Shown here: positions 1-61,925 of the stretch, piece by piece
Layout of the letters: each line of letters opens with the position of its first letter
How positions within the stretch are numbered: position 1 is the stretch's first letter
Program-made: the position numbers and the translations under genes
The notes under the pieces: model-generated
Databases searched by the model: none
Told to the model about the DNA's origin: nothing
What the model saw: the letters and a program-made list of their open reading frames with translations, nothing else
NCBI GenBank assembly: GCA_902764415.1
Contig: CACWVU010000003.1
Span: 3,857 to 67,856 of the forward strand
Length of the DNA: 64,000 nucleotides
Direction: 5' to 3'
DNA from: an uncultured bacterium
GTDB lineage: Bacteria; Verrucomicrobiota; Kiritimatiellia; RFP12; UBA1067

Positions 1-1
1 C

Positions 2-1411
2 GGGAAGTCGATCACGCTACCCGTAGCCGCGCTCACGTATTCGGACAAGGGCAAGGGTCAGGTTTCCCGCAACTTCCACCGCTGGGCGCGTCGCCACTGG
101 ATGCCCAACGGCGCGAAGGAGAGGCCGACGCTTCTCAACAACTGGGAGGGGACGGGGCTTCTGTTCGTCGAAAAGGAAATCGTCACGATCATGGACGGCG
201 CGAAGTCCGTCGGTGTTGAAATGTTCGTCCTCGACGACGGCTGGTTCGGGCTCGGCGACCGTGTTCGCAATACCGACGACCGTGGGCTTGGCGACTGGTA
301 CGTGAACAAGGAGAAACTTCCAAATGGACTTGCTGGTCTTGCCGCCGAAGCGAAGAAGCGCGGGCTCAAGTTCGGTTTCTGGGTGGAGCCCGAAATGGCG
401 AACATCGGGAAGTGCGATCTTCTCGCAAAGCACCCCGACTGGGCGCTGCAGGAGAAGGGCCGCCCGATGCGCGGCGGACGCGGCGGCACGCAGGTCGTCC
501 TTGACTTCGTAAATCCTGCCGTGCGCGACGAGATCTGGAGCCAGCTCGACGCGGCGTATTCTTCCGTCCCGGGCCTTGCCTACGTCAAGTGGGACGCGAA
601 CGCGAACATCGACAACGTCGGCTCGACGTATCTCGACGCGGCGCACCAGGGCAACCTCTACTTCGACTACACGATGGGCTACTACGACGTCCTCGCCCGC
701 CAGCGGGCAAAATATCCAAACCTCGACATGCAGGCGTGCTCGTCGGGCGGCGGACACATGGAATACGGCTCGCTCAAGTACTGCGACGAGTTCTGGACTT
801 CTGACAACACCGATCCGCGTGACCGAGTGAAGATGCAGTGGGGCGCGAGCATGTTCTATCCAGCATGCGCGATGGCGAGCCATGTGACCGTTACGGGGCG
901 CCAAGTGCCGTTCAAGTATCGCGTTGACGTTTCGTTCTCCGGGCGCTTTGGCATCGAAATGCAACCGAAGAGCATGAAGCCGAGAGAACTCGATTTCGCC
1001 CGCAACGCCCTCAAGGAATATCATCGCATACGTCCTGTCGTGCAGCAGGGCGACTTGTATCGTCTTGTCTCGCCTTTCGAGCACGACTACGCAGCGCTTA
1101 TGTACGTGAACGAGCAGAAGACCCATGCCATCGTCTGCATGTACGGGCTTTCCCGCGACACGCGCAAGAACTATTTGCCGCCGCTTATCATGCAGGGGCT
1201 CGACCCAAAGAAGCACTATCGCCTTCGTGAATTGAACACCGAGAGCTGGCGCGGGCCGCATTCGCCGCTTCTCGGGAAATGTACTGACTTCGTTGCCGAG
1301 ATGGACGAAAAGATACTCCCGACAGGCGAGGCGCTGATGACTTTCGGCCTTCCTGTTTCGCTTGGCAGCAAGGACTACGACTCCGCCATATTCGAGCTCA
1401 TAGCTGAATAG
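2..1411 (+). CDS. alpha-galactosidase, GH36 family (5' end cut by window edge)
   Basis: The frame is open from nt 2: GKSITLPVAALTYSDKGKGQVSRNFHRWARRHW precedes the listed Met at 101. GH36 hallmarks are FVLDDGWFG, YVKWDAN, CSSGGGHMEYG and FWTSDNTDPRDRVKMQWG. Stop TAG at 1409-1411. Confidence 0.88.
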   Translation, partial: GKSITLPVAALTYSDKGKGQVSRNFHRWARRHWMPNGAKERPTLLNNWEGTGLLFVEKEIVTIMDGAKSVGVEMFVLDDGWFGLGDRVRNTDDRGLGDWYVNKEKLPNGLAGLAAEAKKRGLKFGFWVEPEMANIGKCDLLAKHPDWALQEKGRPMRGGRGGTQVVLDFVNPAVRDEIWSQLDAAYSSVPGLAYVKWDANANIDNVGSTYLDAAHQGNLYFDYTMGYYDVLARQRAKYPNLDMQACSSGGGHMEYGSLKYCDEFWTSDNTDPRDRVKMQWGASMFYPACAMASHVTVTGRQVPFKYRVDVSFSGRFGIEMQPKSMKPRELDFARNALKEYHRIRPVVQQGDLYRLVSPFEHDYAALMYVNEQKTHAIVCMYGLSRDTRKNYLPPLIMQGLDPKKHYRLRELNTESWRGPHSPLLGKCTDFVAEMDEKILPTGEALMTFGLPVSLGSKDYDSAIFELIAE

Positions 1412-1450
1412 TACTGCGGATTATGTGGATGTGCTGACAGTATAGTGAAT

Positions 1451-1797
1451 GAAACTCCGATCCGTATGGCTCTCGCTACCGCTCCGCAGAATATGTTTTG
1501 CTTCGCGCATAGCATTCGTTTTCCACGGCCACTCTTGCCTTGTTTTATATCTGCGGCTTCGCCGCAGTGGGCTCTTATGGGGGTCTGGGGGCTGCGCCCC
1601 CAGTTAAAAAAACCTTTGCGTTCTTTGTGTTCTTTGCGGCTGACAAAACCTGCCGTGGATCTGAATTGGGGTTGCGAGATGCGAAGCTGTGGAGCGGGAA
1701 TGCGCCCGCGCCGAAGGCGTCGGGTTGGCCGAGGGCGAAGCCCAAGCCGCGAAGCGGCCGCAAGGGCACGCGCGAGAACCCCAACCATCGGAGTTTT
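1451..1797. repeat. structured nested-palindrome repeat element, copy A (carries a 72-nt extra segment ~1698-1771)
   Basis: The termini are inverted: aaactccgat..ctcgctaccgctcc at the 5' end pairs with ggagcgg..gcgagaacccc..atcggagttt at the 3' end. Internal hairpins are ctgcggc-ttc-gccgcag and ctgggggc-tgc-gcccccag, and a TTCTTTGnG x3 array is present. A ~170-nt core differs from copy B (26971-27245) at only a handful of positions by eye. Confidence 0.85.
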
Positions 1798-7418: not shown

Positions 7419-8569
7419 AGAAGCGCGAGATACTCCTTCTTTCTCCTTCAGCACAGAGAGACCTCACCGACATATTGTCGGGGATTGTGCCGGCTGTCGA
7501 GCGGAATGGCTGGAGCGTCCATGTGGTTGGCGACATCCATTCCCGAAAGAGACTTCTTGCTCTCCTTAAGTTCTGGTCGCCGGACGGCTGCATCGTCCAC
7601 AGTGGACTCAACGACGGAGGAATAGTCCCTGAGGATTTTGGAAGAATTCCCGTCGTGTGGATAGATCGCGATCCGGCGACGCTGCCGCCTTCGGCGCTGT
7701 GTGTCATTCAGGATTCGCGTCCCGCCGGAACACTTGCCGCCAAGGAACTCCTTAGATTCAACCTTGAGTTGTATGCGTTTGTCGACCGGGCGAACCCGCA
7801 GTTTTGGTCCGAGGACCGCCGCAAAGCTTTCCGCGAGGCCGTCGAACTTAACGGGAAAGACTATCGGGAATATACAGAGCCCAGCAAATCGAAGTGGCGC
7901 CGCGGCCTAAAGAAGTTTCTTCTTTCGCTTCCCAGGCCCTGCGGGGTGTTCTGCACAAACGACTCGGTTGCCGTTGAAGTGATGTCGCAGGCGTCAAAAC
8001 TCGGCATAGAGATGCCTGACGAGATGCTGGTTGTTGGAGTTGATGACGTAGATGCGTTTTGCGAGGCCGTTTCGCCGACGCTGACGAGCGTGCACCCCTC
8101 CTTTGCGGCGGCAGGACTTGCTGCTGCGGAGCTTCTCGCGAGAAGCATTGCTAATCCGAAGCTCAAGGGTGTGATCAAGACTTTCGTGGCGCATGAGATA
8201 ACGCGGCGGCAGTCCACGCGCCACATCACTACGAATGGCGGCAACATCGGCCTTGCGCTCGAGATGATCCGAAGGAGGGCGGCGGAGGGCGTTGCCGTCG
8301 ACGAGGTGGTGTCGCTCATGGGGTGTTCTCGGCGTGCCGCAGAACTCCGCTTCAGGCAGTATCTGCACAGCACCATTCTCGACGAGATACATGCTGCGCG
8401 CATCGAACTTGCGAAGAGAATCATATTGAGTGGCAAGTTCAAGATCGGCGGGCTGCACCTTCGCTGCGGCTTCGACTCGCCCGCGACCTTCCGCCGCGTG
8501 TTCAAGTCGGTCACGGGGCTTTCACCGCAGGCATACCTGCAAAAACACCAAGAGGTAACGACAACATGA
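7415..8569 (+). CDS. AraC-family transcriptional regulator with N-terminal LacI/periplasmic-binding-protein-like sugar-binding domain (XylR-type hybrid)
   Basis: ATG 7415 overlaps the upstream TGA (ATGA, 7415-7418) and is preceded by gggagg at 7401-7406. The C-terminal AraC HTH reads VDEVVSLMGCSRRAAELRFRQYL...LHLRCGFDSPATFRRVFKSVTGLSPQAY. The N-terminal part has an alternating beta-alpha PBP-like pattern (VFCTNDSVAVEVM, VVGVDD). The longer ORF start at 7004 lies inside the upstream gene. Confidence 0.82.
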   Translation: MKKREILLLSPSAQRDLTDILSGIVPAVERNGWSVHVVGDIHSRKRLLALLKFWSPDGCIVHSGLNDGGIVPEDFGRIPVVWIDRDPATLPPSALCVIQDSRPAGTLAAKELLRFNLELYAFVDRANPQFWSEDRRKAFREAVELNGKDYREYTEPSKSKWRRGLKKFLLSLPRPCGVFCTNDSVAVEVMSQASKLGIEMPDEMLVVGVDDVDAFCEAVSPTLTSVHPSFAAAGLAAAELLARSIANPKLKGVIKTFVAHEITRRQSTRHITTNGGNIGLALEMIRRRAAEGVAVDEVVSLMGCSRRAAELRFRQYLHSTILDEIHAARIELAKRIILSGKFKIGGLHLRCGFDSPATFRRVFKSVTGLSPQAYLQKHQEVTTT

Positions 8570-10740: not shown

Positions 10741-10755
10741 CGGCGAAGGCATGAG

Positions 10756-11799: not shown

Positions 11800-11852
11800 G
11801 TGCGTTGCGTATTCTGAGCGGCGATTTTTGCGCGAGTTGAGCGCGTGGGGGG

Positions 11853-11881
11853 TTGCATTGTTCCCCGCGATTTTGTATAAT
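11853..11881 (+). promoter_or_regulatory. sigma70-like promoter for the 3,530-aa gene
   Basis: TTGCAT (11853-11858), a 17-nt spacer, then a perfect TATAAT (11876-11881). GGAGG at ~11900-11904 lies 8 nt before ATG 11913. Confidence 0.55.
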
Positions 11882-22608: not shown

Positions 22609-22687
22609 ATGGGGCTCAAATGGGACCAAAGGGACAAACATGACCAGCCAGTCGCTTAAGTCGCTTTTGTCGCTCTCGTCCCTTGAA
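22551..22687. repeat. two exact 59-nt direct repeats (22551-22609 and 22629-22687, period 78 nt)
   Basis: aagggacaaacatgaccagccagtcgcttaagtcgcttttgtcgctctcgtcccttgaa occurs twice, identical by eye. The second copy ends 10 nt before ATG 22698. Confidence 0.85.
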
Positions 22688-22697
22688 GAGGTCCCCA

Positions 22698-29977: not shown

Positions 29978-30010
29978 TCAAGGGGTAGATTATTGTAGAT
30001 AGCCCCTTGA
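29978..30010 (+). promoter_or_regulatory. stem-loop between the SGNH gene and the giant-gene operon (weak terminator or operator), overlapping the -35 box
   Basis: tcaagggg (29978-29985) and ccccttga (30003-30010) form an 8-bp stem around a 17-nt loop (tagattattgtagatag). Confidence 0.3.
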
Positions 30011-30035
30011 TTCCAACAGTATATTTTGGTATTAT
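30007..30035 (+). promoter_or_regulatory. sigma70-like promoter upstream of the small gene and the 10,451-aa gene
   Basis: TTGATT (30007-30012), a 17-nt spacer, then TATTAT (30030-30035), inside the only AT-rich tract of the region (29.94-30.09 kb). Confidence 0.45.
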
Positions 30036-54500: not shown

Positions 54501-57500
54501 AGCTCTGACCTCGCGAACGCGGTCGCGGTCACGAACAATGTTGCCGCCAGTACGGCGGTCGAGCTCACGGGCCTCCGTCCTGGCGCGAGCTACTATATCG
54601 CCGCGTGGTACGTCAACGACGAGAATGACGGTCGCGGCAGCGACAAGAGCGGCAACAAGTACCGCATGCCCTACGACACCTGGGGCTACTACTGCAAACT
54701 CGACGTCACGAATGCGCTTGGGGTTGCGTCGTCGATGGCGTTCGATCCGGTGGCGGTCATCGCGGCGACGAATGCGTCCGAGATCACGATCTATCTGCAA
54801 GACACCGATTGGAACGCCAACAACATCGTTGATCGCGAAGAGAACTTCCGCGCCATCAACGGCGATTACGACCGCTCGGTCGACCCGAAGTACGGCTTCG
54901 ATATCGCTGGCATCGACGAGGTGGAACTCTTCAGCGACGCAGGCGAGAACGACGTCTTCGCGTACGCCGAGGTCCCGTTCTACTGCGTGATGGCGAATGT
55001 CGGCGGCGCCGAGATGTGGTTCGCGGTGACCAATCTCGACGAGGAGACCGTCTCCGACAAGATTGTTCCCGGCATTCCTGTCGGCGCATTGCTCAAGGAT
55101 CTCATTACGCTCAAAGCGACCTACTTCTATGACTTCGGCAAGACGAAGCCCACCCGCCTCGCGCTCGGCACTAACATCGTCTGGACCGGCGAGGAGAAGG
55201 TGGTGAAGGCGGTGGAGAGCAAGTCGCTCATCCTCGTCCACGGCCAGGTGTACGACTACTTCAAGTTCAACCCGAACACGGCGAACGGGCGCATCGCCAA
55301 GTCCGGGTGGGTGAACACCAGATCGTTCACGAGCGCGGACAAGAGCTACGTCACCAACTACCTTGCGAACGTCCTCGGCGAAACGGATGTTTCGGGGAAG
55401 GCACTTCCGATCGACTATCCCGACGCAGATGAGGTCGTGAACGGACGAGGCGACGGCATCCTCGACGGCTGGGAGCTCTATGTCAAACACAGCCCGTGGG
55501 ACTTCACCGACCGCACGTTTGACGCGGATGAAGACGGTCTTGACCAACTCCACGAGTACGACGGCGGCTTCGAGCCGACCGACCCGTGGGACGCGTATTC
55601 GGTGTACAACAACTTCTTCGAGAACGGGCTGCTCCTGCCTGGCACGCCGAAGTTTACCGACGCCGAGGCGCGCAGGTTCGGCATCGCCGAGGCCGACGTA
55701 GACAAGGACGACGACAACGACCTCCTTACCAATCTCCAGGAGATCCAGGCGTACTACTACGACCGGACGGGCCTTGACGACATCGACCCGGAGAAGGCGT
55801 GGAGCGACGGCGCGACGCCGGACTACTTCCGCGCGGTCGGCTCGACCTACCTCGGCCTCCTCTTCAACGGCGGCGAGTTCATCGAGCCAGAAGCCCGCAA
55901 GGCGCTTGGCATCGGCGTCTTCAGCCAGGTGGGCACACGCGACCACGCCATGACCGGCTGGGACAACTGGTCTACGGTGCGCTACAGCATCGCCAAGAAG
56001 GAGGGCACGCTGTCCGTCTCTGGCGTCAGCGAGGAGCTGATGCTGGTCATCCGCTACCTGAACGTGATCCGTCCCGGCGAGTTCCAGGGCGGCACGCTCG
56101 AGGAGGTGCTCGAGTTCTTCCACAGCAACTGGGAGGGCGTGACCCGCGCCATCGACAGCGAGGGCAATGTCGTGGTCGAGGCCAAGGACAAGGAAGTCCA
56201 CGGCGGCGCGTACATCGTCGACGCCGACGCGGTGTCCACCACCGAGGGGCTGATTCGCTTCTTCGGCGGCGTCGACCGGATGCAGGCCGACATCGCTGCG
56301 AACAAGAAGGTGCTGACCGACGCCGACATCGCCACTCCGGAGGTTGAGGTCGTCCTCACGCTCAAGTACGCAGGCAACGATTCGCAGAATATTGCAGTCG
56401 AGGCGTACCAGGTCAACCCGGCGTATCCTGAGTACGGAATGCAGCAGACGGCCAAGTGGAACGTGTCCGAGAAGTTCTCGGCCGGCGTCGCCCAGATCGT
56501 TCTTCCCTCCACTCCGGCGGCGGGCGCGCTCGTCCAGGGACCTGCGCGGTTCGTGGCGTACATCGACCAGGACGGCGACAACAAGCTCTCGGCCGGCGAC
56601 ATCTACGGCACCACCGACGTCGAGGTCGGCTACCTCGGCGCCAAGCTGACTATCAGGATGGGCGGCGAGCAGGACTACGCCTATCCGCTCGTCCGCGTGC
56701 AGGCGACCAACGACTGCTCGATTGTGGCGCTCGTCCGCTCCAAGATCAACGACGTGCCGCTCTACAGCCAGGTCGCCGGCGTCTACTACTGCTATCTGCA
56801 GAACAACGCCGCTCGCGAGGCGATCTACCCGATCGAGTTCTTCACCGAGGAGCACACCGGCCTTGACAAGGACCTTGCCCTCGACTACGGCGGGGAGCTG
56901 GAGCAGATCGAGTCGGTCACCTACGAAATCCTCCACCTCGACCTCGCGGGGCTCAACGACGTCAACGTCACCAACCTCAACCACTACCTCTGGATAGAGG
57001 AGGTCGAGACCGACGACGGCGTATCCAACGTCGTGCACTTCGTGGAGCAGTCCCTCAACGAGGAGGTCACCTTCCGCTACTCCAACACCCGCGACAAGGC
57101 GGACGTTTGGGGCGTCGCCGACGCGGTGAAGGGGAACGTCACCGTCTCGTTCACCGTCCCGAACGACGGCTACGCCAACACGCGCTTCTGGCTCAAGGTC
57201 AACGGAGCCGTCTACGACGGCGAGCACGGCAACGGCTTCCTGATCCCGCCGGTCGCCGACCACGTGGTCGTGCTCGACCAGGAGTGGTTCGACAACGAGG
57301 GCAAGGACGTCGTCTTCGACGTCGGCGAGAATAAGGTGCAGGTGCTGCTCGGCAACGACAAGTACGCGTACACTGAAGATGTTGCCGAGTGGTCCGAAGA
57401 GGCCCGGTTCAGCGTCGACGCCGCACCGATCCGCACCGGCAAGCTCGCGGTTGAGGTGAAGCATCCGCTTACCAACTTCACCAGTGGCGTCACCATCGCG

Positions 57501-60500
57501 GCCTACGAGACCGCCGACCTCGTGAACCCGGTCGTGGTCTCCAACAACGTCGCGTCCGACGCCGCGGTCGTCCTCGAAGGCCTCCGTCCCGGCGCGAAGT
57601 ACTATGTCGCCGCATGGTACGCGAAGGAGCCCGATGACGGCCGTCTCAACGCCGACACGCGCATGCCGTGGGACAGCTGGGGCTACTACTGCAACCTCAC
57701 TCATACCAATGCGCTCCAGATTGCCGGCACCTACGGCTTCGACCCGGTGGCGATTGCCGCGGGCGACACGCTGGTATCGACGAACGCCGTCTGGCTGCAG
57801 GACACCGACTTCAACGACAACGGCGTGGCCGACCGCGAGGAGGACTTCTTGGACGTGCCGGCTTTCTACGACCGCGAGCTTGAGGTCGCCTATTACTTCG
57901 ACATCGCCGGCGCCGAGGAGCGCCACACCAGCGGCGGCGGCGGCTCGACGGCCACGCACTGGGCGATGGCCTATGCTGTGGTGCCGTACGCGACGGTGGC
58001 GACGACCAACGAGCGCGGCGCGGTGGTCTGGTACGCGGTCGTTGTCGACCCCGCCGACCCCTCGTCCTCCAACGTCACCAGCGTCGGCATCGCGGTGGGC
58101 ACGCCGCTCTCCGAGCTCAAGCTCGCCTCCACCTACTACTACGGCAAGGAGCTGGCGCTCGGCACCAACGTCTCCTTCGCCGCCGACTCGGAGTGGAAGG
58201 TGACCGAGTCGCGGGTGCAGGACGTCGTGCTCGTCCATGCCCAGGTGCTCGACCGCTTCGGCTTCGACCCGGCGACAGCCAACAGCGCCATCGCGACCGG
58301 CGAGCGCGTGAACTCGAAGGAATTCACCAAGCGCGACAAGTCCAGGTACCTCGCCGACTACCTCGAGAACGCGCTCGGCGTCACCAACGCCGCCGCCTAC
58401 GTGCTCAACACCACCGTCGACGACTCCGACCCGGTCTACGGCGGCATGGGCGACGGCATCGCCGACGGCTGGGAGCTCTACATGATGTTCAAGCCCGACG
58501 GCGTGAGGGACGGCATCGTCGGCACGGTCGCCGACCTCACCAACGAGCTGGTCAGGCTCTCGCCGTGGAACTACGACGACCGCGACGGCGACCTCGACGG
58601 CGATGGGCTCTCCAACCTCCTCGAGTACGACGGCGGCCACTTCCCGACCAACCCCTACGACGTCGACACCGACGGCGACGGAATCACCGACCTCTACGCC
58701 TGGAAGTACATGCTCAAGGGTGGCGAAGCCGACGGCGACACCGACGGCGACCGGCTCTCCAACTACGCCGAGTACCTCATCAGCGAGGTCTTCCAGTTCT
58801 GCGACCTCGATCCGCGCAACCCGAAGACCGACGGCGCGTGCGTCGACTACTTCCGCAAGGTTGGCAACCTCTACCTCGGCGAGCTCTTCACCGACCACGA
58901 CCAGGTCTCCGACCGCTGGGAGGCGCAGTATGCGACCGAGAAGTCCAATACCGGCGACATCTGGGCGAACCGCTACGTCTACGATCCCGAGAAGGACCTC
59001 GACGGCGACGGCTGGTCGAACTACGCCGAGTCGCGCGCCGGCACGAGTCCGGAGGTGGCCGACTCCATCGGCATCGACCAGATGACGCTGGCCGAGCACC
59101 CGGTCCCGATCATCGAGGCGACGGTAGTCTACAACGGCTACGACCCGATCTACGGCCCGATCGTCTTCCGCGCCTGGAACCAGAAGTACGACCCGGAGAT
59201 GATGCACGCGCCCGATGCGATCTGGACGGTGCCCTCGAGCGTCTCCCGCGGCAGCGACGGCAACGGCACCACGACGGACGCCGGCGCGCAGGTCCTGGAG
59301 GCCGCCAAGTATGTCGGCGTCAAGCCGGCCGGCCGCGTCGTCTACAGCCTCGGCCCGGGCTCGGTGACGCCCGGCTCGGTGAAGATCTACTTCCGCGATC
59401 CGGCCTTCCGCCGCGCGGTGGTGCGCGACAGGACCGAAGTCTACGTCTCCGACGCCGGCGTCTCGCAGGCGAAGTGGTATGCGCTCGTCCAGGACAAGAA
59501 CGGCGAGCTCGTCACCTCCATCACCAACCAGACCGCCGTCGCGGTTGGCTCGATCGACTACACCACCGGCAAGGTCGAGATCGACTTCGGCTCCGCCGCG
59601 CTCAGCGGCAGCGTCTACGCCCAGATGATCAACGCGACGAGCGGCAACGAGAAGATCGACTCCGACATCACCCACTCGCTCCAGTACTTCAACTGCGAGA
59701 AGCTCAACCTCGACGCAAGCTACGTGAAGCTCGAGTGGAACCGCACCCGCGTCGGCACCAACGTCGGCGGCGTCTACTACCTCGGCGACGCCGACCCGGC
59801 GACCGGCGAATCCTCCGGCGGCAGCTCCGGCGGCAACCCGTTCAGCTCCGGCGGCAACTCCACCAGCTTCACCTCCATGAGCAAGGGCTACGTGCGCGAG
59901 GGCCTGAACAGCTTCGTCGTCTACGCCGACCAGGACGGCGACGGCGACTACACGCCCGGCGAGCCCTTCGGCTTCGTGCGCGACGTCGACGTCGGCTGGC
60001 AGGGCGCCAAGTTCTCGGTCGAGCTCTCCGAGACCTCGCCGATCTTCGCCCGCGTCAACGTCCGGACCGAGGAGAACGACCGCGTCAACCTCTACGGCGT
60101 CTACAGCGACACGATGTTCATCACCAACATCATGGACCTCGCCACCGCCCAGAGCGTCGACGAAGCCTCCATGACCGACGGCGGCCGCTACATCCACGTC
60201 CGGATCGACCGCTACGCCGTCAACGGCGTGCAGCTCGGTGTCGGCGCCGGCCAGCTCAACATCGACGACCGCGTGCTGGTCGACAAGTACATCGACGGCA
60301 ACGTCCGCAGCGTCTTCCACGAGGGCGACTTCCTAAAGGAGGGCGAGTTCGACATCGACTGGTCCACCTTCGAGGAAATCTCCGAAAGCCCGGAAATCGC
60401 GGAGAAGCTCGGCAACAACCCCGACATCACCTCCGTCGCCTACCGCATCGTGGTCGACAACGCGCTGGTGGTGAGCCCGGCCACGAACAACCTCTCGCTC

Positions 60501-61925
60501 GCCTGCGTGTTCACCCGCCGCTTCGACGCCGACGACGGCGTGTCCCGCCAGATCCCGACCGACCTTGAGGACGTCGTCTGCCACGGCGCACGGCCGACCT
60601 TCAGCTGGTCGATGGGCTCCAAGAACACCTACACCGCCTTCCAGCTGCAGATCCTCGACGGCGGGTCGGTGGTCTACGACAGCGGTGTCCAGCTCGCTCC
60701 GTGCAGGAGCCCGGATGGCAAGTACACCTGGACCGCCCCGATCTCCGTCGGCGACCAGATGCCCAGCGGCCAGATCCTCTCCACGACCGGCAACTACACC
60801 TGGCGCGTCGCGATGTACAACGCCAAGTTCAAGCCCCATCCCTTCGTCGACGCCTTCTCGCAGAAAGCCTCGTTCCGCACCGACGTCGACGCCCAGCAGG
60901 ACACGGACGACGACGGCTTCAACGCCATCAACGTCTGCGTGAAGTACACCGGCCCCGTGGACGTGCTCGCTTTCTGCGACGACGCCTCCGTCAAGGGCAA
61001 GGTGCGCCTCCAGGCGTTCACCACCGCCGACTTCAGCGGCAAGGCGCGCTTCCAGGAGGCCGGATCCACCGACACCAAGATCGTCAGCGTGCCGGCCTCG
61101 CAGACCATCGTCACCGGCAAGGACGAGATCGCCGACGCCTCGCACACCATGGCGAACGCGCGGCTGATCGGCCTCCCCGCCGGCACCTACTACATCCGCG
61201 CCTACATCGACACCAACGGCAACTTCGAAAAGGACGACTGGGAGTCCTGGGGTCAGGCCACGGTGCCAGTCACCGTCGGTGCTGGGCTTGTTGCGCCGGT
61301 CGTCGGTCTCTACATCGAGGACGCCGACACCAACCAGGACTGGGTGCCAGATGCGCTTGAGTTCGACAACGACGGTCAGCTGAAGGACGAGTACAAGGGC
61401 AAGACGACCATCTCCGGCGAGTTCCTGATGTCGAAGAACCTCGCGGCGGCAATGTCCGGCAACACCCTGGAGGCCGGCATCTCCACCGGCATCTCCGGCG
61501 CCACCATCACGGCGTTCCAGTATGTCAACGCGATGGGTACGCTGCTCGGCGCCAACTCGAGCGGCAAGACGACGACGATCGACGCCATCCGCGAGGCGGT
61601 GGAGAAGAAGGTCAAGGACGGCACGGTGAAGATCACGTCGATCGCCTTCGACCCGGTCGACAAGAAGGTGGTGCTGGCGGTCGACGCCGAGGTGGCGGAC
61701 TCGGTGGCGGGCGAGCTCTTCTCGAAGATCTACGAGTTCCCGTCCGACGACGAGGCGAAGGTGACGGTCAAGGTCTACCGCAAGGATTCGCTGGTGCAGG
61801 CCGACTGGGTGCTCGTCCACACCGAGGCTAACGTCGCGGTCGGCAAGCACAGCCAGTACGTGGAGGTGGACCTCCCCGACGGCGACTACACCAGCGGCTT
61901 CTACCGCGTCGAGATCGAGCAGTAG
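30570..61925 (+). CDS. giant secreted multi-repeat protein, 10,451 aa (LamG + dozens of TSP3-like Ca-binding repeats + ~1,000-aa super-repeats)
   Basis: 31,356 nt with no stop. Signal ..MIKRFAAFAFAAFVAFGAQA. An alternative start is ATG 30612, preceded by gaggagg at 30598-30604. TSP3-like motifs occur throughout 34.6-61.4 kb: DTDGDGIPDGWE, DTDGDGLPDGYE, DPDHDGLSNYQEYL, DSDGDGLPDGFE. Coding periodicity is strong: G/C-ending codons were 20/20, 15/20, 14/20 and 19/20 in four spot samples. Confidence 0.9.
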   Translation: MKLSMTMKKTRRTGMIKRFAAFAFAAFVAFGAQAVEGEGDIRSVEAVYNLSAGYSYPNDVSPHKVGETFYILVRLLNEDYRNLNTNHQWQIVQSANGVAIGNAQASVFWPGLRIAIGSQIRTADFSSTGPNGEMSGPNLEFPYYTDFYFKYTVQEGELGLPVRLVNSKEQIINSATISGSYSLKFVNVNTLNNSNGYYWNLVNDKGTMASFWFGPDVPDPEPFDYPTEPSPGTGNGHIFPVYIYPGLYVQTIDFEPTYADATDPANKIWRDVYQGISDSPGKDPAIVGTAQDEGGATTVYIWSEDESIFSVAGIPGETVSYRVKGELVSRTVYPVQLTANGLSSFKLMGGASAEVGAWTNIVLCATKIPAINANEEIVDGCLVTRRVRVVAAPAPFITFSDADGNRSVSLEATSAYTVGSQMKMTFSKAFDDYDVKVKLMMSVGSTSIDLVAEKYILVSDSDGADPASTASLAEITMPRGQTETYFYIYPLGTCKELKTIGIVVSNSIDQATQPEAYEQFKDGTHRNMTVKVTDQKPVVTASIPSSGFKNDTVNVDVTVGDNWRDLSEQNTNGYRVVIILGGTKVYETNVVHFAENEQISFPVVIPAEGNPLKGTVQVWDQMGNASDTSLEGSILTIEALAPLTVMAGTFQSRDKSVAPDTDATYAEGQQVYVGAVLSSPAATKMYAFIVPMDAASSNLVYTSATTNGLEINTSGDNAQYSVRAPIKLLDGDVEGRRVNLGVVLKDKQDWFDPGAKVVDTYSLGGTWTLTVTNVPPTYASDGVWGGEETNRIEVANGARYPGRVSATTPVQFSVKVADPGVIDATSGTTRVRWTWTDGPADDRFTQSQITTVDANGIATATFIFEEEGQVQNVSLQLQDRDMRADNPNVFGDDKYFFSVAVGDVPTVIIDFAKSDGPNYVETANKNHNFFTVKMSEWPTASVPGRERLGLTNPLYVKVTLPTDYQDDSRAVLHLVDTNGVVQVDDDEGIVITFKTAKQATRDGIKVYFDLDSQNGGSGPVMDPSAFLVKAEVITDTAASDYQTWAEYYASIEEQVTLMNDNPSKFTLDMAGTQDWAGYAGATNEWTAGETIKLTWSYTDIAPDVTNQDATISWTLADVNNKRSVKVIAATNSITYSTKSPKVATATGTYEFKVPNAKYTKVTVTARDGDGGEAAYEFWIHVIPTKNVIINPYGPSPTTSTKYGTASGLGRGHIYVEGSTKQYTMRQFQQTWLYSESDPQAFLYAAGYPATNTVAYDDGTLGIAAGFELAAEPNAQGGKWATAQGESTRYSYGPSEYDNYFYCWLMKNQDSGGWEIQVVNPLTSPATAQPFNPMLPATDANNNGAYPSIEVEAVFAREYYPSDNLGDINADGIPDAYVKLYPGFGVFDDGGALTGNDLSRLDNFNVDEDYLPAAESVEYAKFIPGNAADWVMRGVPFNARREIRGWDYHLNNGPAISGVLNSAPERRYTNPKEDADSTLSALEYMGFLTWCAKNGHDAADEASWLLWSPENPTDPTLADTDGDKIPDGYEYYIWYRAHVGYIDYDGQYRRLIGRRYNTENPAEPTVIPSEEIESIYNPNVPNDLLAYVDTDGDGLNDLIEFELGTNPVDFDSDGDGLPDGFEVFISKTDPLIADLMTSNPDGDAKAELVVENLSVIGILNSDGKVERYTILNPDLGESFDVSDETVDGDWTYILNLSDGGRVTNAYVTATANVVTNGYFGSMTGAGTYLVSYLPSESTWKCVDVGDGAYYLGEPVEVNPGLRINFIKAGVTAKRTTLAAAPKMAYSVWKYDYSGRLVLGQELHEKWTPIFLPAGSTVVERPAAKNVTLLHHHVYQYRGLAKDKLDRSRKVWVPVKAFDPRTAWRVAGGANTSAFSTYDEFMYPHFLLQDSYRYSAGAALYTGGWSVSLSELTPNNDHGTRVSIWERYCPDPLNADTDGDGCPDGWEAYLFDGPPVYLPDNDENFPGERVYSVVLTPSIYNIGCKVAAGSPVSSSVAEDGSSSWADEYAGYDSTGAYPDCPTIVNGNRFPDWTNKAWPTDPWQDDTDGDGIPDMAERDFFRYGNATAPGAGGGLNPLSWDTDQDGLPDPWEAEFAGTYTPGDEKTTATTVAVDENGNTNTTVSVTRAGGTWSGGMDGTVNDATLDYDHDGLQNWQEYLVGAMRCWRYDDTISEWDNNVFNEMALQAAIDNLSGVADVADANVWNAFWTDRLVSDAQQGANPDGQYPVGKGYSPDHAGYNPRITVDGFFDCSASYFSLCENEWDPVAGSWYMFRDGINHDLSNPGEEWTFLEGSTLVQCNRFTWRPYYEALSGSSPKSLGDDSMSGGYDFGTFPSYVIAPDRYICCDPTLADTDGDGMDDYYELYHGMNPLLGIAGASERSNGGYDLVFAAYGGGQGTPGSEEPPPASADVNYWKKRPTDGTQSPNPCWRINQTRRIGTGLSDYDYEAYPWLNGLAYADPDGDDLRNQTESIMSDMQAQSTWLHSDPTPLWMTDLDYEGSITHRYYIPTEVRGLIILGAPDGFFDPETLKEYKFNDFMGYTWVDGEPPTLSIAGVDLNLGNVFDVAYDFEENEGYDTDHDYISDHDEAAGKTKSASDPQDSDSPLRRQAMYFPGEDSLLETTLEDPEYSAVGAIIGNDLPFLYYTVECWAKPEGDLTRDQTVVERAVYTGKSNLGDEQFLRKNFLIGIKNGRWYTMYDSAGTSVNDPQQILDGPFATTNWTHVAATFDGEYLSLYINGVKYKQIKTSLRPENGVAAVGTDVGGRLEGRSDWGNYAAILVGASATTFEGVVMDSLYRQLSMVGTKFSDYDRYFRGYVDEVRVWDGARAESEIRADYKKRYTRADALANREAVWEVWSQGIVNRSPSTENLLPAELRRHWTFDHMPGGVSTDVVMRSPAGFTTAEGVVDAKAIWSRPKEWESPWWTSVEVRSTVYKEHYEAWIPWISDTVGHLPRFDKTTTDSKYWSEDMIGGEFASTFGYSQVSFPRSAEPWSRWRQALHRTVPATAIDERYNWISEDPALLLTYYFTMRYRLKEGFDLLPLGGAYAKRISAAEGGMWDDGTAADAWAETGADADFDRLPDWWADYARNNYCDPLDPPERIGWDTAVNYDGIVMAAWAAYLRDLARGMLSDGKYHPEFADNRDLDHDGIPDWWEDMYKINTGSKDDAVADPDHDGLSNYQEYLISEVDRIVALDPTLAHSITEDVVDYYVQTTNSLGETVYLGELYADHDFMEDLEEDANGLDRTRYDANTDADEDGWSAWSELRYSDYKLTTAQKFVSHLAGVEEVEDYPVPVVHATLRYNGSKVPVGSTAPVIVYAYSGNNLQNEPNAVYTVTPGASETRYLYLGFFEDRVFHGTLTPGWVVNNLGSFSLQVAHAQPDDIFSWEIFDDEGNSLGLYSGTYDEMRAAVTTYGSRCKVKTKEFVWSDTLASGNGGTSDDEFALKIASVDSTMKGHILLFNKRVGDIDLITGDFDLDVSVLKSYFMTYGIALPQHFLRLMYQSQLPTLQTKDLQVSLARPDRGKLTEGVTAFVAFIDADGDGAFTPGTDPIGFMKDVEVGWDQVPSLVIEMTDSSQAAGERFAYGGGSNTVDTLRIIRTSVNGSEEGVKRRIVYSRETGDVKRNTVYEGDLVTSGKFGLDWSSLRADLKAMETVAFDDVTEVGYTVTLGGGSVQNINPANVARTFTVEYTTKPVKPTLYSPSALADPKVETARPEFKWSGADGYTSFILQIWNAETNVYASPLTALPPTDSFGRYFWTPPVYIGNDISDDAWALNNNTNYRWRVAMFNAKFSDTNAADVAWSDFAAFETRLAPANDFSTRLGRADVKVRYYGPATNELGTVIVQLFRNADFAGVPAAQTRLYAADLAAEANSLTNAAAVSFLGLDADEYFAVAFIDRNGNAKREPYETWGYSAQVGHSLPAIWRPLGAKVDPTSSEVSTVEVFMEDTDVNRDDILDWNQDESLLATAASGTASGADTSDVDLDGLTGDEETGDTYTNRQRWDTDGDGMPDGWEARFADTDPLMADAELAADGDLMAFAVTNGIYRLVTDAAGARYLVRDTNSAYRVGDVISTTNLVTTYDYMTVVADETGTNFVTVTYAGLGTNVLATGTFKIDTISPVSVALVHAQVYDEFGYWQSTAVDPADPLTKPFTALDKYMLARYFEAIGFTGVREEAMNVSKTWKDFTLKPLDADCDRDGVADGWELYLMFGTNGVATAQTLATPAAAEISPWKYADRDADIDGDELSLVDEYAQGRTPSDPWNKYSVYEELLAAGVVPEDADKFTDAKARRFAIAAADYDEDWDLDQISNVQEMWAYYRDMARLADIDPENPRSDGFTPDYFRMIGTNSYLGAYYNGAEFVERAARSMLDITDLRMAGTRDLYHSGWDLWSIVRYSYAKQEESGEEFSEELSVANKYTYVMFEGYEGVTEDALVKFHHDDLGHATCGSLAGVITTHGGLEQMKEEIRQRSVSALDASGFDTPEPMVKFTFRYTGFGMRDVIVDVWQTSSIYPERGEQVASSFALQPAFDAGVAYARAKFPARGTLKQGPAKFVAYIDADESGTLSPGETFGVAEANVGYSDLDLTIRLGDGNPALPTINLVANGTNDTERPIQTVAIVRTKVNGQYVSPRGVMLKRYDNNVNRTAIYPSDWINETDGFIGVDKYLAFDAQADIDPSDETLPAVEEVTYEIVKLRRSFLIDSDDGTKISNTNLNHYVYTEVVEDEETGDSSNVYHTVDQQVNEEFTLRYSVARDVPLEVTGSAASKASDTVVSFLVPADRAVTKFWLDIDGSVKGGDSDRGFLLANLVTGDVLNTAPGLTGQYTSRRVILDGDWFRENGIAFTEGEHGVRVALGNDKFPAAPTEAAEWSERAEFSVAADAVFKGMVAVRAVHPVVTNENAFTTITVAAYEQPDLANPVATATSVTNGAAVVLGGLRTGRKYYLAAWYVKDAADGRSGSSAADPKVRMPYDTWGYLTMLGEATNGFNAAAIVATEKSVPTNTIWMQDTDWNDNGVADREENLTIKSIPGFTPSEAPEWEDVDCDGIPDQDDEDPVFDNSTKSIEGDVMAKATLKMLTVRIGTVELETNWVTYVVYDPDQETATRLDGDTIVIPRGTPASALTSLYTTYLYGRKKSAPLGIGVATNLAEGVVYEHEWKDVALVHHQVYERFGFNPNTANALASPSNWVNTAKFTALDKYIVTNYLYAIGAVVDPASFTNWTLNARRVDFDYDGLTDGWELYTMFGTNAVQALDKTAKASVINAWVAGDRELDPDGDGLTNLHEYNGGFEPTDPWNKYTFDFGTPLPGGALPLTDYEARRFDIGSAEKQLADDDNDGLSNWAELLATRNGAFGEFDVKKDFTVTNQFDYFRTNGLEGVARRYAGFVVTDHDFVGDAWEDAHDLTVANRYVYDAHTDYDDNGWSLWSEATAAAMWKPEVITNTYDMGDEVYTWVYTNGVEFTGTPLPKVNLVAIGDVGDKNYSYQQVENEGTTNAVTNTVWATYPVTLKAYRGNDLGSAYRTFYVDGTVKDGVLVASFDGEGLVEGLNTFVLENGDASGFCKAMVGFDRVDLEISIDSGESVIPPRTVYGWGDAVSIRRTEINGRTCPMRYVWSGSVDGYVTAADVLKSGAIDLDARYLVEDAAAMGIANTNIASVTYEVSGWYGQTFTKTFAAKRPVAIPVSPTIGKAYTVRTRKPVFAFAGLDGATAFALQISISTNAADVFLATTNLLPAANSAGSRIFKSDWQIGEGLDLNDSSNYFWRVVGLSAKWPEVEESGASAWAEFKTSVDSTKANTGYGKIAAEVRYYGAATNDTASVIVGVWRDAAFAGTPVAMKHLAAGDFAALAVQKEESEFFKPTASVEFDGIEPGNYYVMAYNDLNGNGKRDAWESWGYKNKVGTDEPDLYAPVALTVVSTKAATPTALVFMEDTDINDNGIPDCVEDIDFCGEDPSSVSGSMDLDGDGLDESDEIWNEHLYGTDPLVWDTDGDGLPDGYEVWAGLDPVSEYDIMLTRTYADTNGVEQTYTYRTSAAENAEDGDVMAYAMIVRRALVVADAVGGETVTLVVDPADTTDYRVGGKLKAGGVTSFATAVPYATLPSADWNEYTEKEYYVLSTNVYEATDNDFVVDVVDEFEIMLMHWQVYGAFGFESGVATPGDTEKRADGQVHTRPMYGIDKYLVSALLGIEEDMNQNRRWGQGLTCLKPGVSDYDGDGIPDGWELYMMFPGAKAGRYEPAMNPWKPFDGYTPGAGGMTWTGLDYYDKDGNLHTAGDADWTPADWYNGGANAASPYTANDGNTFYVDIDDKTARQWNIESVTNQLADVDNDGLSNMDEYLAARDTLVPGAADLDVRNNFSNGTTLDYFRTNGVSGAGRRYLGEIATDHDFIEDWYEDFYNTDSASRNRYDAYNDREEDGWSNWSEARAGTNPELFGTLSLVRYDLTEDNVVAEYPIPTIGVTLTYQTMDTFDSSIVLKAWHGDTAAGTPDAVWTVSGAANGSTISKRFLGLNPNRRVDFNIGPGDIAEHHVKIRWYDPDYYIETINYETNGTIKSIVYTIHDIDSSRWSTPPYFGDDVLDQSNGKYTAAIPGGWVNYKTGDISIDFSDPAYRDTDYTYHERVDDNQKIIHHWNLTRSFFNVEYMSRIVSSGNRKTFSLSKPMEADANSKGRLVEGRTIFIAFADVNGNGVLDPGEPFGYQKGVEVGWDKVADLRIELTDEAPALPRVALGGISSNAWLSIRRQVVNDSVRRGIEKVVWTGRAPSSGSLTEADILLEAGGYVFDGSLTNDAVKAGLGQVYSSCYGLYADGDLIAAFTNVFDLARDVPVPVSPSDKNGYLVRTARPTFVFNGDRSKYTAFAIQIADAAGDVVWTSTTNVFPAATASGSEYVAPVYIGQGQLLADGTNYLWRVAQFNSKFPTAEDDADWSDWTPFKTAVDSTDGDTGYGKLSAEIRYYGAATSALTNVIVGVYDTADFTGEPIAKATLLGDGTVQDLARIPDAGKGFMNIETNVVFDGVSAGPRYVMAYIDVNGNGRRDRYEPWGYYNNVGTDTKALYTPMSLAVSAAKADAPSCIVFIEDTDVNDNGIPDSAEDTSSWTDPLPASADLTDADGDGLTAFDEINLYGTNPYCADTDGDGMDDGWEVANGLNPRVDDSDVVGADDVMAYAEVEAQIAVSNDTVYVVMTVVDGYGKVVATNLYDTFTLGDGRIAVGKKSDAVVVPGQFYATISTNVVLIHSAVYDWFGFDPTTANPRATAAEDEGGEDGNGLGRNTVPFTAYWKFVTEKHYLKELFGVDWSLKTAAIDSNANGLPDGWELYVAFATKTVDPNTNTGFPLAGDILVDAIANFNEGVDESDPWNRYYFYEQLGSTNGVVRYTNAEARKYDLANGDLTNDEDFDGLSNYSEFLASKLTPAIELDVTNPVTDGVTPDYFRKAGDDYMGLLFNGGEFIEPELRRVMGIATQTGAGTQDYKDTGWDAWATARYSIYNMDQTVDISGVVSDELMLLIRYWNVIRPGEFTGTTVKEALDFFHEVWEGVIRLIDSEGNILIDGKDASVSGPGTIHQADAAQTTTQVVAFFGGQAKMEEVIARNKKDIAADQIVKPEPEVKLLLKYAGNGSHNVVIEAYQLNPAYPEYGEQMTAQWTTPVTFSAGIAQTVLATTPASGALLQGPARFVAYIDQDGSNSLSAGDIFGETSCEVGYLGCNLEIALGEANPALPALRLADGTNAVNTIALVRTAINGKPLYNNAKGVFIVQFPNNAARESLYPDEYDSGDYIGIDQGLSTLVNIKDEHGVVTNGIESVTYEVLRLTPYEIAGLSITNLNHYILVETNGESSVTSNFVNQSVNEEITIKYSLIRDVAKSIACAGSTADDLTFTFTVPTDTANTKFWLKTVSGVETNILGGTKGFILNDIRDGVVVLDKQWFKKNNVAIPTGRVKFGVVLGNDRFGRPGDSSDDWNCALAEVFVNEGASFDGKLAVVVKHPTATLGSKLTIAAYESSDLANAVAVTNNVAASTAVELTGLRPGASYYIAAWYVNDENDGRGSDKSGNKYRMPYDTWGYYCKLDVTNALGVASSMAFDPVAVIAATNASEITIYLQDTDWNANNIVDREENFRAINGDYDRSVDPKYGFDIAGIDEVELFSDAGENDVFAYAEVPFYCVMANVGGAEMWFAVTNLDEETVSDKIVPGIPVGALLKDLITLKATYFYDFGKTKPTRLALGTNIVWTGEEKVVKAVESKSLILVHGQVYDYFKFNPNTANGRIAKSGWVNTRSFTSADKSYVTNYLANVLGETDVSGKALPIDYPDADEVVNGRGDGILDGWELYVKHSPWDFTDRTFDADEDGLDQLHEYDGGFEPTDPWDAYSVYNNFFENGLLLPGTPKFTDAEARRFGIAEADVDKDDDNDLLTNLQEIQAYYYDRTGLDDIDPEKAWSDGATPDYFRAVGSTYLGLLFNGGEFIEPEARKALGIGVFSQVGTRDHAMTGWDNWSTVRYSIAKKEGTLSVSGVSEELMLVIRYLNVIRPGEFQGGTLEEVLEFFHSNWEGVTRAIDSEGNVVVEAKDKEVHGGAYIVDADAVSTTEGLIRFFGGVDRMQADIAANKKVLTDADIATPEVEVVLTLKYAGNDSQNIAVEAYQVNPAYPEYGMQQTAKWNVSEKFSAGVAQIVLPSTPAAGALVQGPARFVAYIDQDGDNKLSAGDIYGTTDVEVGYLGAKLTIRMGGEQDYAYPLVRVQATNDCSIVALVRSKINDVPLYSQVAGVYYCYLQNNAAREAIYPIEFFTEEHTGLDKDLALDYGGELEQIESVTYEILHLDLAGLNDVNVTNLNHYLWIEEVETDDGVSNVVHFVEQSLNEEVTFRYSNTRDKADVWGVADAVKGNVTVSFTVPNDGYANTRFWLKVNGAVYDGEHGNGFLIPPVADHVVVLDQEWFDNEGKDVVFDVGENKVQVLLGNDKYAYTEDVAEWSEEARFSVDAAPIRTGKLAVEVKHPLTNFTSGVTIAAYETADLVNPVVVSNNVASDAAVVLEGLRPGAKYYVAAWYAKEPDDGRLNADTRMPWDSWGYYCNLTHTNALQIAGTYGFDPVAIAAGDTLVSTNAVWLQDTDFNDNGVADREEDFLDVPAFYDRELEVAYYFDIAGAEERHTSGGGGSTATHWAMAYAVVPYATVATTNERGAVVWYAVVVDPADPSSSNVTSVGIAVGTPLSELKLASTYYYGKELALGTNVSFAADSEWKVTESRVQDVVLVHAQVLDRFGFDPATANSAIATGERVNSKEFTKRDKSRYLADYLENALGVTNAAAYVLNTTVDDSDPVYGGMGDGIADGWELYMMFKPDGVRDGIVGTVADLTNELVRLSPWNYDDRDGDLDGDGLSNLLEYDGGHFPTNPYDVDTDGDGITDLYAWKYMLKGGEADGDTDGDRLSNYAEYLISEVFQFCDLDPRNPKTDGACVDYFRKVGNLYLGELFTDHDQVSDRWEAQYATEKSNTGDIWANRYVYDPEKDLDGDGWSNYAESRAGTSPEVADSIGIDQMTLAEHPVPIIEATVVYNGYDPIYGPIVFRAWNQKYDPEMMHAPDAIWTVPSSVSRGSDGNGTTTDAGAQVLEAAKYVGVKPAGRVVYSLGPGSVTPGSVKIYFRDPAFRRAVVRDRTEVYVSDAGVSQAKWYALVQDKNGELVTSITNQTAVAVGSIDYTTGKVEIDFGSAALSGSVYAQMINATSGNEKIDSDITHSLQYFNCEKLNLDASYVKLEWNRTRVGTNVGGVYYLGDADPATGESSGGSSGGNPFSSGGNSTSFTSMSKGYVREGLNSFVVYADQDGDGDYTPGEPFGFVRDVDVGWQGAKFSVELSETSPIFARVNVRTEENDRVNLYGVYSDTMFITNIMDLATAQSVDEASMTDGGRYIHVRIDRYAVNGVQLGVGAGQLNIDDRVLVDKYIDGNVRSVFHEGDFLKEGEFDIDWSTFEEISESPEIAEKLGNNPDITSVAYRIVVDNALVVSPATNNLSLACVFTRRFDADDGVSRQIPTDLEDVVCHGARPTFSWSMGSKNTYTAFQLQILDGGSVVYDSGVQLAPCRSPDGKYTWTAPISVGDQMPSGQILSTTGNYTWRVAMYNAKFKPHPFVDAFSQKASFRTDVDAQQDTDDDGFNAINVCVKYTGPVDVLAFCDDASVKGKVRLQAFTTADFSGKARFQEAGSTDTKIVSVPASQTIVTGKDEIADASHTMANARLIGLPAGTYYIRAYIDTNGNFEKDDWESWGQATVPVTVGAGLVAPVVGLYIEDADTNQDWVPDALEFDNDGQLKDEYKGKTTISGEFLMSKNLAAAMSGNTLEAGISTGISGATITAFQYVNAMGTLLGANSSGKTTTIDAIREAVEKKVKDGTVKITSIAFDPVDKKVVLAVDAEVADSVAGELFSKIYEFPSDDEAKVTVKVYRKDSLVQADWVLVHTEANVAVGKHSQYVEVDLPDGDYTSGFYRVEIEQ
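38380..39080 (+). other. single LamG/concanavalin-A-like domain inside the giant protein
   Basis: RRQAMYFPGEDS...YTVECWAKPEGDLTRDQTVVERA...NWTHVAATFDGEYLSLYINGVKY...FRGYVDEVRVWDGARAESEIRADYKKRY is the typical Laminin_G_3 pattern. Confidence 0.75.
39700..61330 (+). repeat. seven divergent ~3-kb (~1,000-aa) coding super-repeats of two architectures (order A-B-A-A-B-B-A)
   Basis: The in-frame anchor motif L(V/M/I)H.QV(Y/L)..FG(F/Y) sits at nt 42921, 46023, 48942, 52212, 55233 and 58230, giving spacings of 1034, 973, 1090, 1007 and 999 aa. Type A units carry DHDF..NRY.Y...D(G/E)DGWS.WSE, F.AF.D..G.G...PG.P.G....VEVGW, RP.F.(W/F).G...Y.WRVA.FN.KF, RYYG.AT and Y.(V/I).AY.D.NGN(G).(K/R)(R/D)..E.WGY. 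Type B units carry PDYFR..G..Y.G..(Y/F)NG.EF(V/I)E, FVAYID.D....LS.G..(F/Y)G....VGY, NLNHY, KFWL, AAYE..DLAN(P/A)V, YY.AAWY and RMP(Y/W)D(T/S)WGY. Confidence 0.8.

Follow-up and report, generated by a model that had tools for sequence, protein, structure and literature searches.

We analyzed a 64,000-nucleotide (nt) stretch of DNA from an uncultured bacterium of the Kiritimatiellia, positions 3857-67856 of contig C3 in a 2.6 Mb assembly of 74 contigs (hereafter, the window), in which two giant genes, A and B, lie among genes for secreted carbohydrate-active enzymes. A prediction made earlier from the letters of the DNA (the original prediction) held that both giants and the enzymes form one non-Sus glycan-capture system, with calcium-binding lectin scaffolds holding glycans near the enzymes. 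We conclude that the window is probably not one glycan-capture machine and represents a lineage-specific chance juxtaposition of two evolutionarily separate modules. Module 1 (approximately positions 1-29936) would be a glycoside hydrolase (GH) cluster that resembles a polysaccharide utilization locus (PUL) without SusC or SusD and carries giant A. Module 2 (30007-64000) would consist of a small lipoprotein gene, c0, and giant B, followed by ackA-pta, and would be core to this Kiritimatiellae family. The evidence comprises gene content, domain content, family distribution, synteny and unit copy number, from which we infer regulation, surface location, binding and the role of the lipoprotein.

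The two giants differ in how widely they occur. Among 151 genomes of the same GTDB family, the first 1,500 amino acids (aa) of B found matches in 114, including 58 of the 69 high-quality genomes, whereas the core of A (aa 830-2250) matched, besides this genome, only two, both weakly and partially. B was almost always present as a single locus, which in some genomes was reported as one reading frame in two pieces. Across the class, a sample of 201 genomes returned only seven matches to B, namely this genome and six others of the same family, and a protein 73% identical to the B head is attributed by NCBI to a Kiritimatiellae bacterium. From its distribution in the family and class samples, we conclude that B is a near-universal, family-specific, single-copy core gene.

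The flanks of B homologs were retrieved from 20 genomes. Directly 3′ of B, ackA-pta was found in all 10 same-genus genomes with downstream sequence and in six genomes of four other genera. Homologs of c0 with a lipobox lie directly 5′ of B homologs in 10 of 19 flanks, representing eight genera, and also in G315, the nearest relative; c0 itself has no family match in Pfam or NCBIfam. In at least 20 same-genus genomes the lipoprotein gene is preceded by another giant, c1 (2,000-3,700 aa), the C-terminus of which lies no more than 1.5 kb from the start of B, giving the order c1-lipoprotein-B. In three other genera, a Peptidase_C10 protein of ~1,000-1,180 aa is found 5′ of the lipoprotein position, and a fourth genome has a giant with Flg_new repeats after a C10-type gene. 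The genome studied here keeps only the lipoprotein-B part of this order, with the c1 ortholog displaced to C31:28424-39475 and an SGNH gene preceding c0 instead. We considered the position of ackA-pta beside B as a functional link and set it aside as conserved core gene order, as nothing ties the fermentation enzymes to a surface fiber.

The displaced c1 encodes 3,683 aa with Gly_rich_2 at the N-terminus (region C31:20035-41048). Upstream of it are genes with gidA-, dnaA- and dnaN-like N-termini, recognized by eye, and downstream of it is an ATPase-like gene of 439 aa. One possibility is that c1 was parted from c0 and B by a rearrangement close to the replication origin.

A single system of A, B and the enzymes would be consistent with the placement of all genes on one strand, with Laminin_G_3 in both giants and TSP3 repeats in B, and with export leaders on the enzymes and the presence of a sugar-sensor regulator. 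G315 also has the melibiase-like, Gfo and SGNH genes of the glycosidase cluster directly before c0-B. However, G315 is the only genome among the B flanks in which these genes adjoin c0-B, and B is flanked, in four other genera as well as at least 20 genomes of the same genus, by the lipoprotein gene, ackA-pta and either c1 or a C10 peptidase, with no carbohydrate-active enzymes (CAZymes) among these neighbors. On L002, a metagenome contig with an A homolog at 88% identity, the cluster runs on into genes for IMPDH and a signal peptidase, and B is not found within 10 kb. Because this cluster lacks B and the A core, outside this genome, weakly matched only 2 of the 151 family genomes searched, we conclude that the pairing of A with B is not conserved. 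Cohesin and dockerin families had no match in the scanned parts of either giant or of any enzyme. Additionally, the genome has 16 LamG matches spread over at least 13 ORFs, and the domain is therefore too common for its presence on a giant to be distinctive. We consider it very unlikely that both giants and the enzymes constitute one system. The expected synteny of the giants with CAZymes in relatives was borne out for A over a narrow range and failed for B; likewise, the proposed glycan-capture system is partly supported in its A half, as far as gene order and domains can indicate, and finds no support from synteny in its B half.

The relatives of A place it in the glycosidase cluster. Homologs at 75-94% identity were found in metagenome assemblies only. 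L002 and a second metagenome contig, L001, with an A homolog at 75% identity, share the gene order GH36, a large gene in the position of the window's GH130-GH78-GtaA fusion gene, AraC regulator, A, melibiase-like gene and Gfo. On L002 the large gene is a collinear 1,835-aa ortholog of the fusion gene with the GH130, GH78 and GtaA domains all present; on L001 it encodes 1,767 aa with no domain matches on record. A distant fn3/Gly_rich_2 giant also lies beside Gfo and GH36. No ortholog of the fusion enzyme was found in the G315 or G329 assemblies. We conclude that A is accessory and rare, and that its linkage to the GH cluster is kept over a narrow range.

The AraC gene lies directly 5′ of A on both L001 and L002, and the GH92 gene and a gene resembling RayT and IS200 transposases, which stand between them in the window (8566-11799), are absent there. 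This difference is compatible with either insertion into this genome or loss from the relatives, although the GH92 ATG overlaps the AraC stop exactly (ATGA). The RayT/IS200-like gene has six paralogs in the genome.

The gene inventory behind the original prediction proved accurate. Domains were called by Pfam and NCBIfam profile scans of window open reading frames (ORFs) of at least 150 aa. The two giants, both with Sec signals and both with intact ORFs, total 41,949 nt (65.5% of the window, given previously as about 66%), and Laminin_G_3 was matched in each. All credible genes are on the plus strand. The interleaved secreted carbohydrate-active genes (GH36, GH130, GH78, a glutaminase-like module, GH92, a GH-D-like barrel, SGNH and a twin-arginine-exported Gfo/Idh/MocA protein) were all recovered, with the glutaminase-like module identified as GtaA and GH130, GH78 and GtaA residing in one fusion protein. 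The reported AraC sugar-sensing regulator was found to carry Peripla_BP_3 and HTH_18 domains. The reported lack of a SusC/SusD pair also stands, since neither family was matched by Pfam in the scanned window ORFs; to our knowledge, however, such a pair is not expected outside Bacteroidota, and the "non-Sus" label is therefore uninformative.

A contains three ~350-aa DUF2341+LamG copies (aa 1-375, 485-823 and 2257-2592) and two ~915-aa fn3/Gly_rich_2 blocks (aa ~1232-2148 and ~2606-3519) that are 49% identical to each other. Laminin_G_3 was matched by Pfam at 42.8 bits across two stretches. No catalytic family was matched in A by Pfam or NCBIfam, and PDB sequence searches with the Gly_rich_2 block and the DUF2341-LamG modules returned nothing informative.

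The C-terminus of A, PGTVYYIR (22482-22505), belongs to a recurring tail, which we defined as a C-terminal G, zero to two residues, four or five hydrophobic residues and R, in ORFs of at least 500 aa with an export leader. The genome has 26 tail-bearing secreted ORFs (examples are GSVYYIR and GFIYIVR; loci C10:840-11846, C60:7909-15555 and C47:28338-31091). A and its homologs P0001-P0004 and P0007-P0013 carry the tail, and B and c1 do not. In several proteins in which Gly_rich_2 is the C-terminal domain, the tail coincides with the end of that profile, its last strand. The regulator in the window joins a periplasmic-binding-protein (PBP) type sugar sensor to an AraC helix-turn-helix, and the genome holds 12 such PBP-AraC paralogs. 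A tail-bearing protein lies within 600 nt of 6 of these 12, as compared to 2.2% of all ORFs (binomial P 9e-8), and the count becomes 7 of 12 when A is included. Five of the six tail-bearing neighbors were scanned and gave a polysaccharide deacetylase, SGNH with Gly_rich_2, Gly_rich_2 and LamG, with no family match in one. LamG proteins without the tail flank three further PBP-AraC paralogs, and one of these also has Gly_rich_2. Tail-bearing secreted proteins beside sugar-sensor AraC regulators form a class found across the genome, and A is the largest of them. The pairing supports a presumed sugar-dependent control of A, which would be a reduced form of the original idea.

The same tail was also observed on a different kind of protein. 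The product of C36:18792-21671 (minus strand) has sigma-70 regions 2 and 4 of the extracytoplasmic function (ECF)-like type at its N-terminus, followed by Gly_rich_2 domains and the tail, and so joins a cytoplasmic-type sigma module to an apparently extracellular-type domain. Paralogs at C10:14980-18747, C37:7381-10629 and C17:11174-13990 share its N-terminal sequence and tail.

We also considered whether neither giant is related to glycans, with both serving as general adhesins or coat proteins and the position of A reflecting recent common ancestry in a genome dense in large secreted proteins. The genome does hold ~30 ORFs of at least 1,500 aa in 2.6 Mb, some distant relatives of A are not beside CAZymes, and A has no catalytic domain or demonstrated carbohydrate-binding module. 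This explanation is nevertheless unlikely given three observations. First, the full-length GH36 gene (757 aa with a signal peptide, starting at C3:2994) is the single copy in the genome, and the window holds one of two genomic copies each of GH78 and GH92, which argues for a genuine specialized cluster and not background. Second, PBP-AraC regulators and tail-bearing proteins are neighbors far more often than expected by chance. Third, a distant A-like giant is again found beside Gfo and GH36.

Under the two-module reading, the adjacent regulator would induce A in response to its sugar ligand, and A would then serve on the cell surface, without catalysis, in binding of or adhesion to the substrate of the cluster. 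We therefore consider it plausible that A is a surface protein induced by sugar within a PUL-like cluster. Like the PULs of Bacteroidota, module 1 groups secreted GHs with a sugar-sensing regulator and a large non-catalytic, putatively surface-located protein, A, which may be compared with surface glycan-binding proteins. Unlike those loci, it has no SusC or SusD, its regulator is a PBP-AraC hybrid, and A has a Sec leader in place of a lipoprotein leader together with a Gly_rich_2 tail; glycan binding by A is hypothetical. The arrangement also differs from a cellulosome scaffoldin, in that profile scans matched neither cohesins nor dockerins in the scanned parts of the giants and the enzymes.

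Giant B has a different anatomy. Its head contains one Laminin_G_3 domain (aa 2641-2758, nt 38490-38843; 59-62 bits), which accounts for ~120 of 10,451 residues, and TSP3_bac repeats of the calcium-binding type at ~aa 1610 and ~2350, with calcium binding predicted by family. The nearest solved relative of the LamG domain is the LamG-like module of pappalysin (E 5e-5), a fold-level PF13385 match that is silent on ligand. Most of B has no Pfam match. Dockerin, EF-hand and discoidin (F5_F8_type_C) families gave no match in B, RTX (HemolysinCabind) gave none in A or B, and no enzyme, toxin or transmembrane domain was matched anywhere in B. An AlphaFold model of aa 6-1105, built with 20 orthologs, had a mean predicted local distance difference test score (pLDDT) of 72.7 and is an all-beta chain of sandwich domains. 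Foldseek matched this model only to multi-sandwich arrays (hydin-like axoneme protein, bacterial alpha-2-macroglobulin, mastigoneme and complement) with TM-scores of 0.10-0.15. The low scores and the restriction to multi-sandwich matches indicate that aa 6-1105 is, as modeled, a generic bead string with no enzyme fold.

The remainder of B, starting at aa 3000, is a tail of seven tandem units (~1,000-1,230 aa each; pairwise identity 21-47%), all with D-x-D-x-DG calcium-type repeats and DUF2141-like sandwich segments. The units were detected by comparing 300-aa chunks, while whole-protein self-BLAST gave the identity match only. Searched as a profile against PDB sequences, a unit matched calmodulin alone, and only marginally. 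With a hidden Markov model (HMM) of the unit, B-family proteins of 4,000-4,190 aa were found to have ~1 unit, those of 5,500-5,900 aa ~2, those of 5,900-6,700 aa ~3 and those of 7,000-7,800 aa ~4. In B of this genome (10,451 aa), 6.8 units were covered, and in B of G315 (11,457 aa), 7.7. The length of B-family proteins rises in whole-unit steps from one to eight copies, and B here has seven units as compared to one in most family members.

Units of B correspond one-to-one to units of the G315 protein with 99, 89, 93, 97, 93, 65 and 76% identity, and the heads are 89% identical; G315 has one extra unit. The one-to-one orthology argues that the units are old and individually maintained, as judged from these alignments, and the lower values suggest that the two outermost units change fastest, at the tip. 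Because the repeats are diverged and the G315 ortholog is collinear, an assembly artifact is unlikely. B ends in SGFYRVEIEQ (family consensus SGFY[KR]VE[IV]E[QE]), a different ending from the R-terminated tail of A.

The architecture of B can be compared with two kinds of known giants. RTX adhesins such as LapA, SiiE and MpIBP are very long proteins with a tandem beta-sandwich stalk that is stiffened by calcium and a few domains of the ligand-binding type, and their length is set by repeat number. B is similar in its beta-sandwich array, as modeled, its TSP3 repeats, for which calcium binding is predicted, its LamG domain and its length set by unit number. It is unlike the RTX adhesins in having an N-terminal Sec leader, no C-terminal type I signal and no RTX match, and no type I secretion transporter genes were found among the window genes. 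Furthermore, the repeating unit of B is a multi-domain segment of ~1,000 aa as opposed to a single domain of ~100 aa, and a small lipoprotein gene precedes B.

Giant surface proteins bearing TSP3 repeats have already been described in bacteria of the Planctomycetes-Verrucomicrobia-Chlamydiae (PVC) group (West-Roberts et al. 2023, bioRxiv 10.1101/2023.11.21.568195). These dockerin-type giants are at least 30,000 aa long and have many dockerin/EF-hand and TSP3 repeats and discoidin domains; Kiritimatiellae are mentioned zero times in that work. B resembles them in its PVC host, its size of more than 10,000 aa, its TSP3 repeats, a proposed surface attachment and growth by repeat duplication. B differs in being shorter than 30,000 aa, in having no dockerin, EF-hand or discoidin match and in being a Kiritimatiellae-specific, positionally conserved core gene. 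A search of the literature yielded no publications about these Kiritimatiellae giants, DUF2341 function or Gly_rich_2.

The comparison with PVC giants raises the question of whether B acts as a weapon on contact or as a surface protein for predation, as proposed for the giants of Omnitrophota and other PVC bacteria, with the peptidase or giant neighbors serving as attack machinery. Attachment roles have been proposed for giant TSP3 genes in PVC phyla (West-Roberts et al., bioRxiv 10.1101/2023.11.21.568195), and other genera have a C10 cysteine peptidase gene 5′ of the lipoprotein gene and B. On the other hand, no enzyme, toxin or transmembrane domain was matched in B, its modeled part consists of beta-sandwich arrays only, and in this fermentative lineage of the gut or rumen, B is core, present in single copy and located beside central fermentation genes. 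We regard a role in attack as highly improbable.

Most likely, B is a general calcium-stiffened surface fiber. As we envisage it, B would be exported by Sec and form a long fiber whose length is set by the number of kilo-residue modules, and the c0 lipoprotein would help to hold or assemble it. The outer units would diverge fastest, and the role of B would be a general envelope or adhesion function that is not substrate-specific.

Transcription signals in the window were assessed as consensus matches only, for promoters and terminators alike. The original prediction assigned each giant its own sigma70-like promoter. The site before A is present, although it scored under the threshold of the scanner, and a hairpin at 11844-11869 overlaps it. 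The assignment did not hold for B, where the TTGATT-17-TATTAT site lies 5′ of c0 and not directly 5′ of B; since the stop codon of c0 is 11 nt 5′ of the start of B, B appears to be without a promoter of its own. Upstream in module 1, ATGA stop/start overlaps join the fusion gene, the AraC regulator and GH92, an arrangement for translational coupling. The best promoter match in the window is at 23615-23644 (TTGCCA-18-TATAAT with a TG, 11 of 12 positions), and it ends 7 nt 5′ of the ATG of the melibiase-like gene, which, for a consensus match, implies an mRNA with little or no leader. Between B and ackA, a spacer of 70 nt (61926-61995) gave no promoter-like or terminator-like match in the scan. 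It was observed to hold four or five TCGTG/GTTCGTGG repeats followed by a good ribosome-binding site, and this TCGTG-rich spacer may be a candidate regulator binding site for ackA-pta.

Several observations weigh against the interpretation of two separate modules, or against parts of it. G315 keeps the melibiase-like, Gfo and SGNH genes directly before c0-B, meaning that the junction is not unique and could be functional, and B has LamG and calcium-type repeats, which are compatible with glycan binding. Since the G315 contig opens within the melibiase-like gene, A may be missing there owing to incomplete assembly. The association of A with the enzymes is seen over short evolutionary distances only, over which gene order has perhaps not yet been shuffled, and, instead of CAZymes, the neighbors of other distant Gly_rich_2/DUF2341 giants are a beta-lactamase, a nucleoside phosphorylase or further giants. 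With respect to the fiber, a model of one B kilo-residue unit from a seven-row alignment had a mean pLDDT of 41, and a Sec substrate of 10,451 aa would still have to cross an outer membrane.

Table 1. Features of the 64,000-nt window, with positions counted from its first nucleotide.
Feature	Position	Strand	Basis
GH36 alpha-galactosidase	2..1411	+	Pfam Melibiase E 4.9e-97 and GH36 C-terminal domain; 5′ end cut by window
Dispersed MITE-like repeat copy	1445..1697		92% identical to 26965-27218
GH130 + GH78 (alpha-L-rhamnosidase) + GtaA-type six-hairpin fusion, 1,860 aa	1836..7418	+	Pfam; signal peptide
Peripla_BP_3 sugar sensor + AraC helix-turn-helix regulator, 384 aa	7415..8569	+	Peripla_BP_3 E 1.2e-22, HTH_18 E 1.3e-12
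Secreted GH92 alpha-mannosidase	8566..10740	+	GH92 catalytic domain E 1e-159; export leader
Weak RayT/IS200-like Y1 transposase-like gene, 347 aa	10756..11799	+	NCBIfam REP_Tyr_transpos 35 bits (cut-off 80); Pfam Y1_Tnp E 0.004
Promoter-like site before A, TTGCAT-17-TATAAT	11853..11881	+	Read from sequence
Giant A, 3,530 aa	11913..22505	+	Sec leader; DUF2341+LamG, fn3/Gly_rich_2
Four-helix-bundle protein with suffix domain (23S rRNA IVS-protein family)	22683..23384	+	TIGR04258 E 6.5e-18, TIGR02436
Secreted melibiase-like (clan GH-D-like) protein	23651..27247	+	Weak match, Melibiase E 5e-11; 97.5% identical in G315
Gfo/Idh/MocA oxidoreductase	27334..28554	+	Pfam E 2.7e-11; twin-arginine leader MISRRSFIGAG; 96% identical in G315
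SGNH/GDSL hydrolase, lipoprotein-type leader	28560..29936	+	Lipase_GDSL_2 E 1.3e-9; 89.5% identical in G315
Promoter-like site TTGATT-17-TATTAT, TG before it	30007..30035	+	Scanner match, AT-rich spacer
Small coiled-coil lipoprotein c0, 156 aa	30089..30559	+	Lipobox FRGCGK; position 5′ of B conserved
Giant B, 10,451 aa	30570..61925	+	Sec leader; TSP3_bac, LamG, seven-unit tail
B head, aa 1-2999	30570..39566	+	Pfam, AlphaFold model, Foldseek
B tail, seven tandem diverged units	39567..61925	+	Self-comparison, alignment, unit HMM, G315 orthology
B units, one by one	39567-42911, 42915-46013, 46017-48932, 48936-52196, 52206-55199, 55227-58220, 58224-61919	+	Alignment
Acetate kinase ackA	61996..63135	+	Pfam E 8e-131; start 70 nt past B stop
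Phosphotransacetylase pta	63185..64000	+	PTA_PTB E 9e-63; 3′ end cut by window

Other features of the window are listed in Table 1. The four-helix-bundle gene directly 3′ of A (22683-23384) has three paralogs at 72%, 68% and 49% identity on three other contigs. An Rfam search of the window identified no known RNA. The repeat in Table 1 resembles a miniature inverted-repeat transposable element (MITE): it is ~255-290 nt long with inverted ends and has dozens of blastn matches on ~19 contigs, with the ends also matching in reverse orientation. A second copy (26965-27250) supplies the last ~285 nt, or ~95 codons, of the melibiase-like ORF, and the annotated C-terminus of that protein is probably not native. 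We had considered the C-terminal 110 aa of this ORF as a protein sorting domain and rejected the idea, as copies elsewhere have stop codons and occur in several frames, indicating a DNA repeat.

Kiritimatiellae are abundant, uncultured glycan degraders of the gut and rumen that would have to capture their substrates without Sus-type machinery. The result presented here guards against over-reading two giants and a set of enzymes as one machine, and it provides two leads. One is a positionally fixed core gene for a putative surface fiber that grows by whole modules of 1,000 residues. The other is the statistical tie between sugar-sensor AraC regulators and tail-bearing secreted proteins, including A. 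In its most far-reaching form, which we put forward only tentatively, the lineage could have an undescribed counterpart of the PUL, in which each PBP-AraC protein would control a neighboring tail-bearing surface protein with a LamG, SGNH or deacetylase module, with A as the largest of these in a GH36/GH78/GH92/GH130 operon; separately, c0 and B might build a fiber with length varying in steps of ~1,000 residues (one to eight) and the outermost modules diversifying fastest. If the tie between regulators and tail-bearing proteins is true, it would show how this lineage organizes its glycan-responsive surface proteins.

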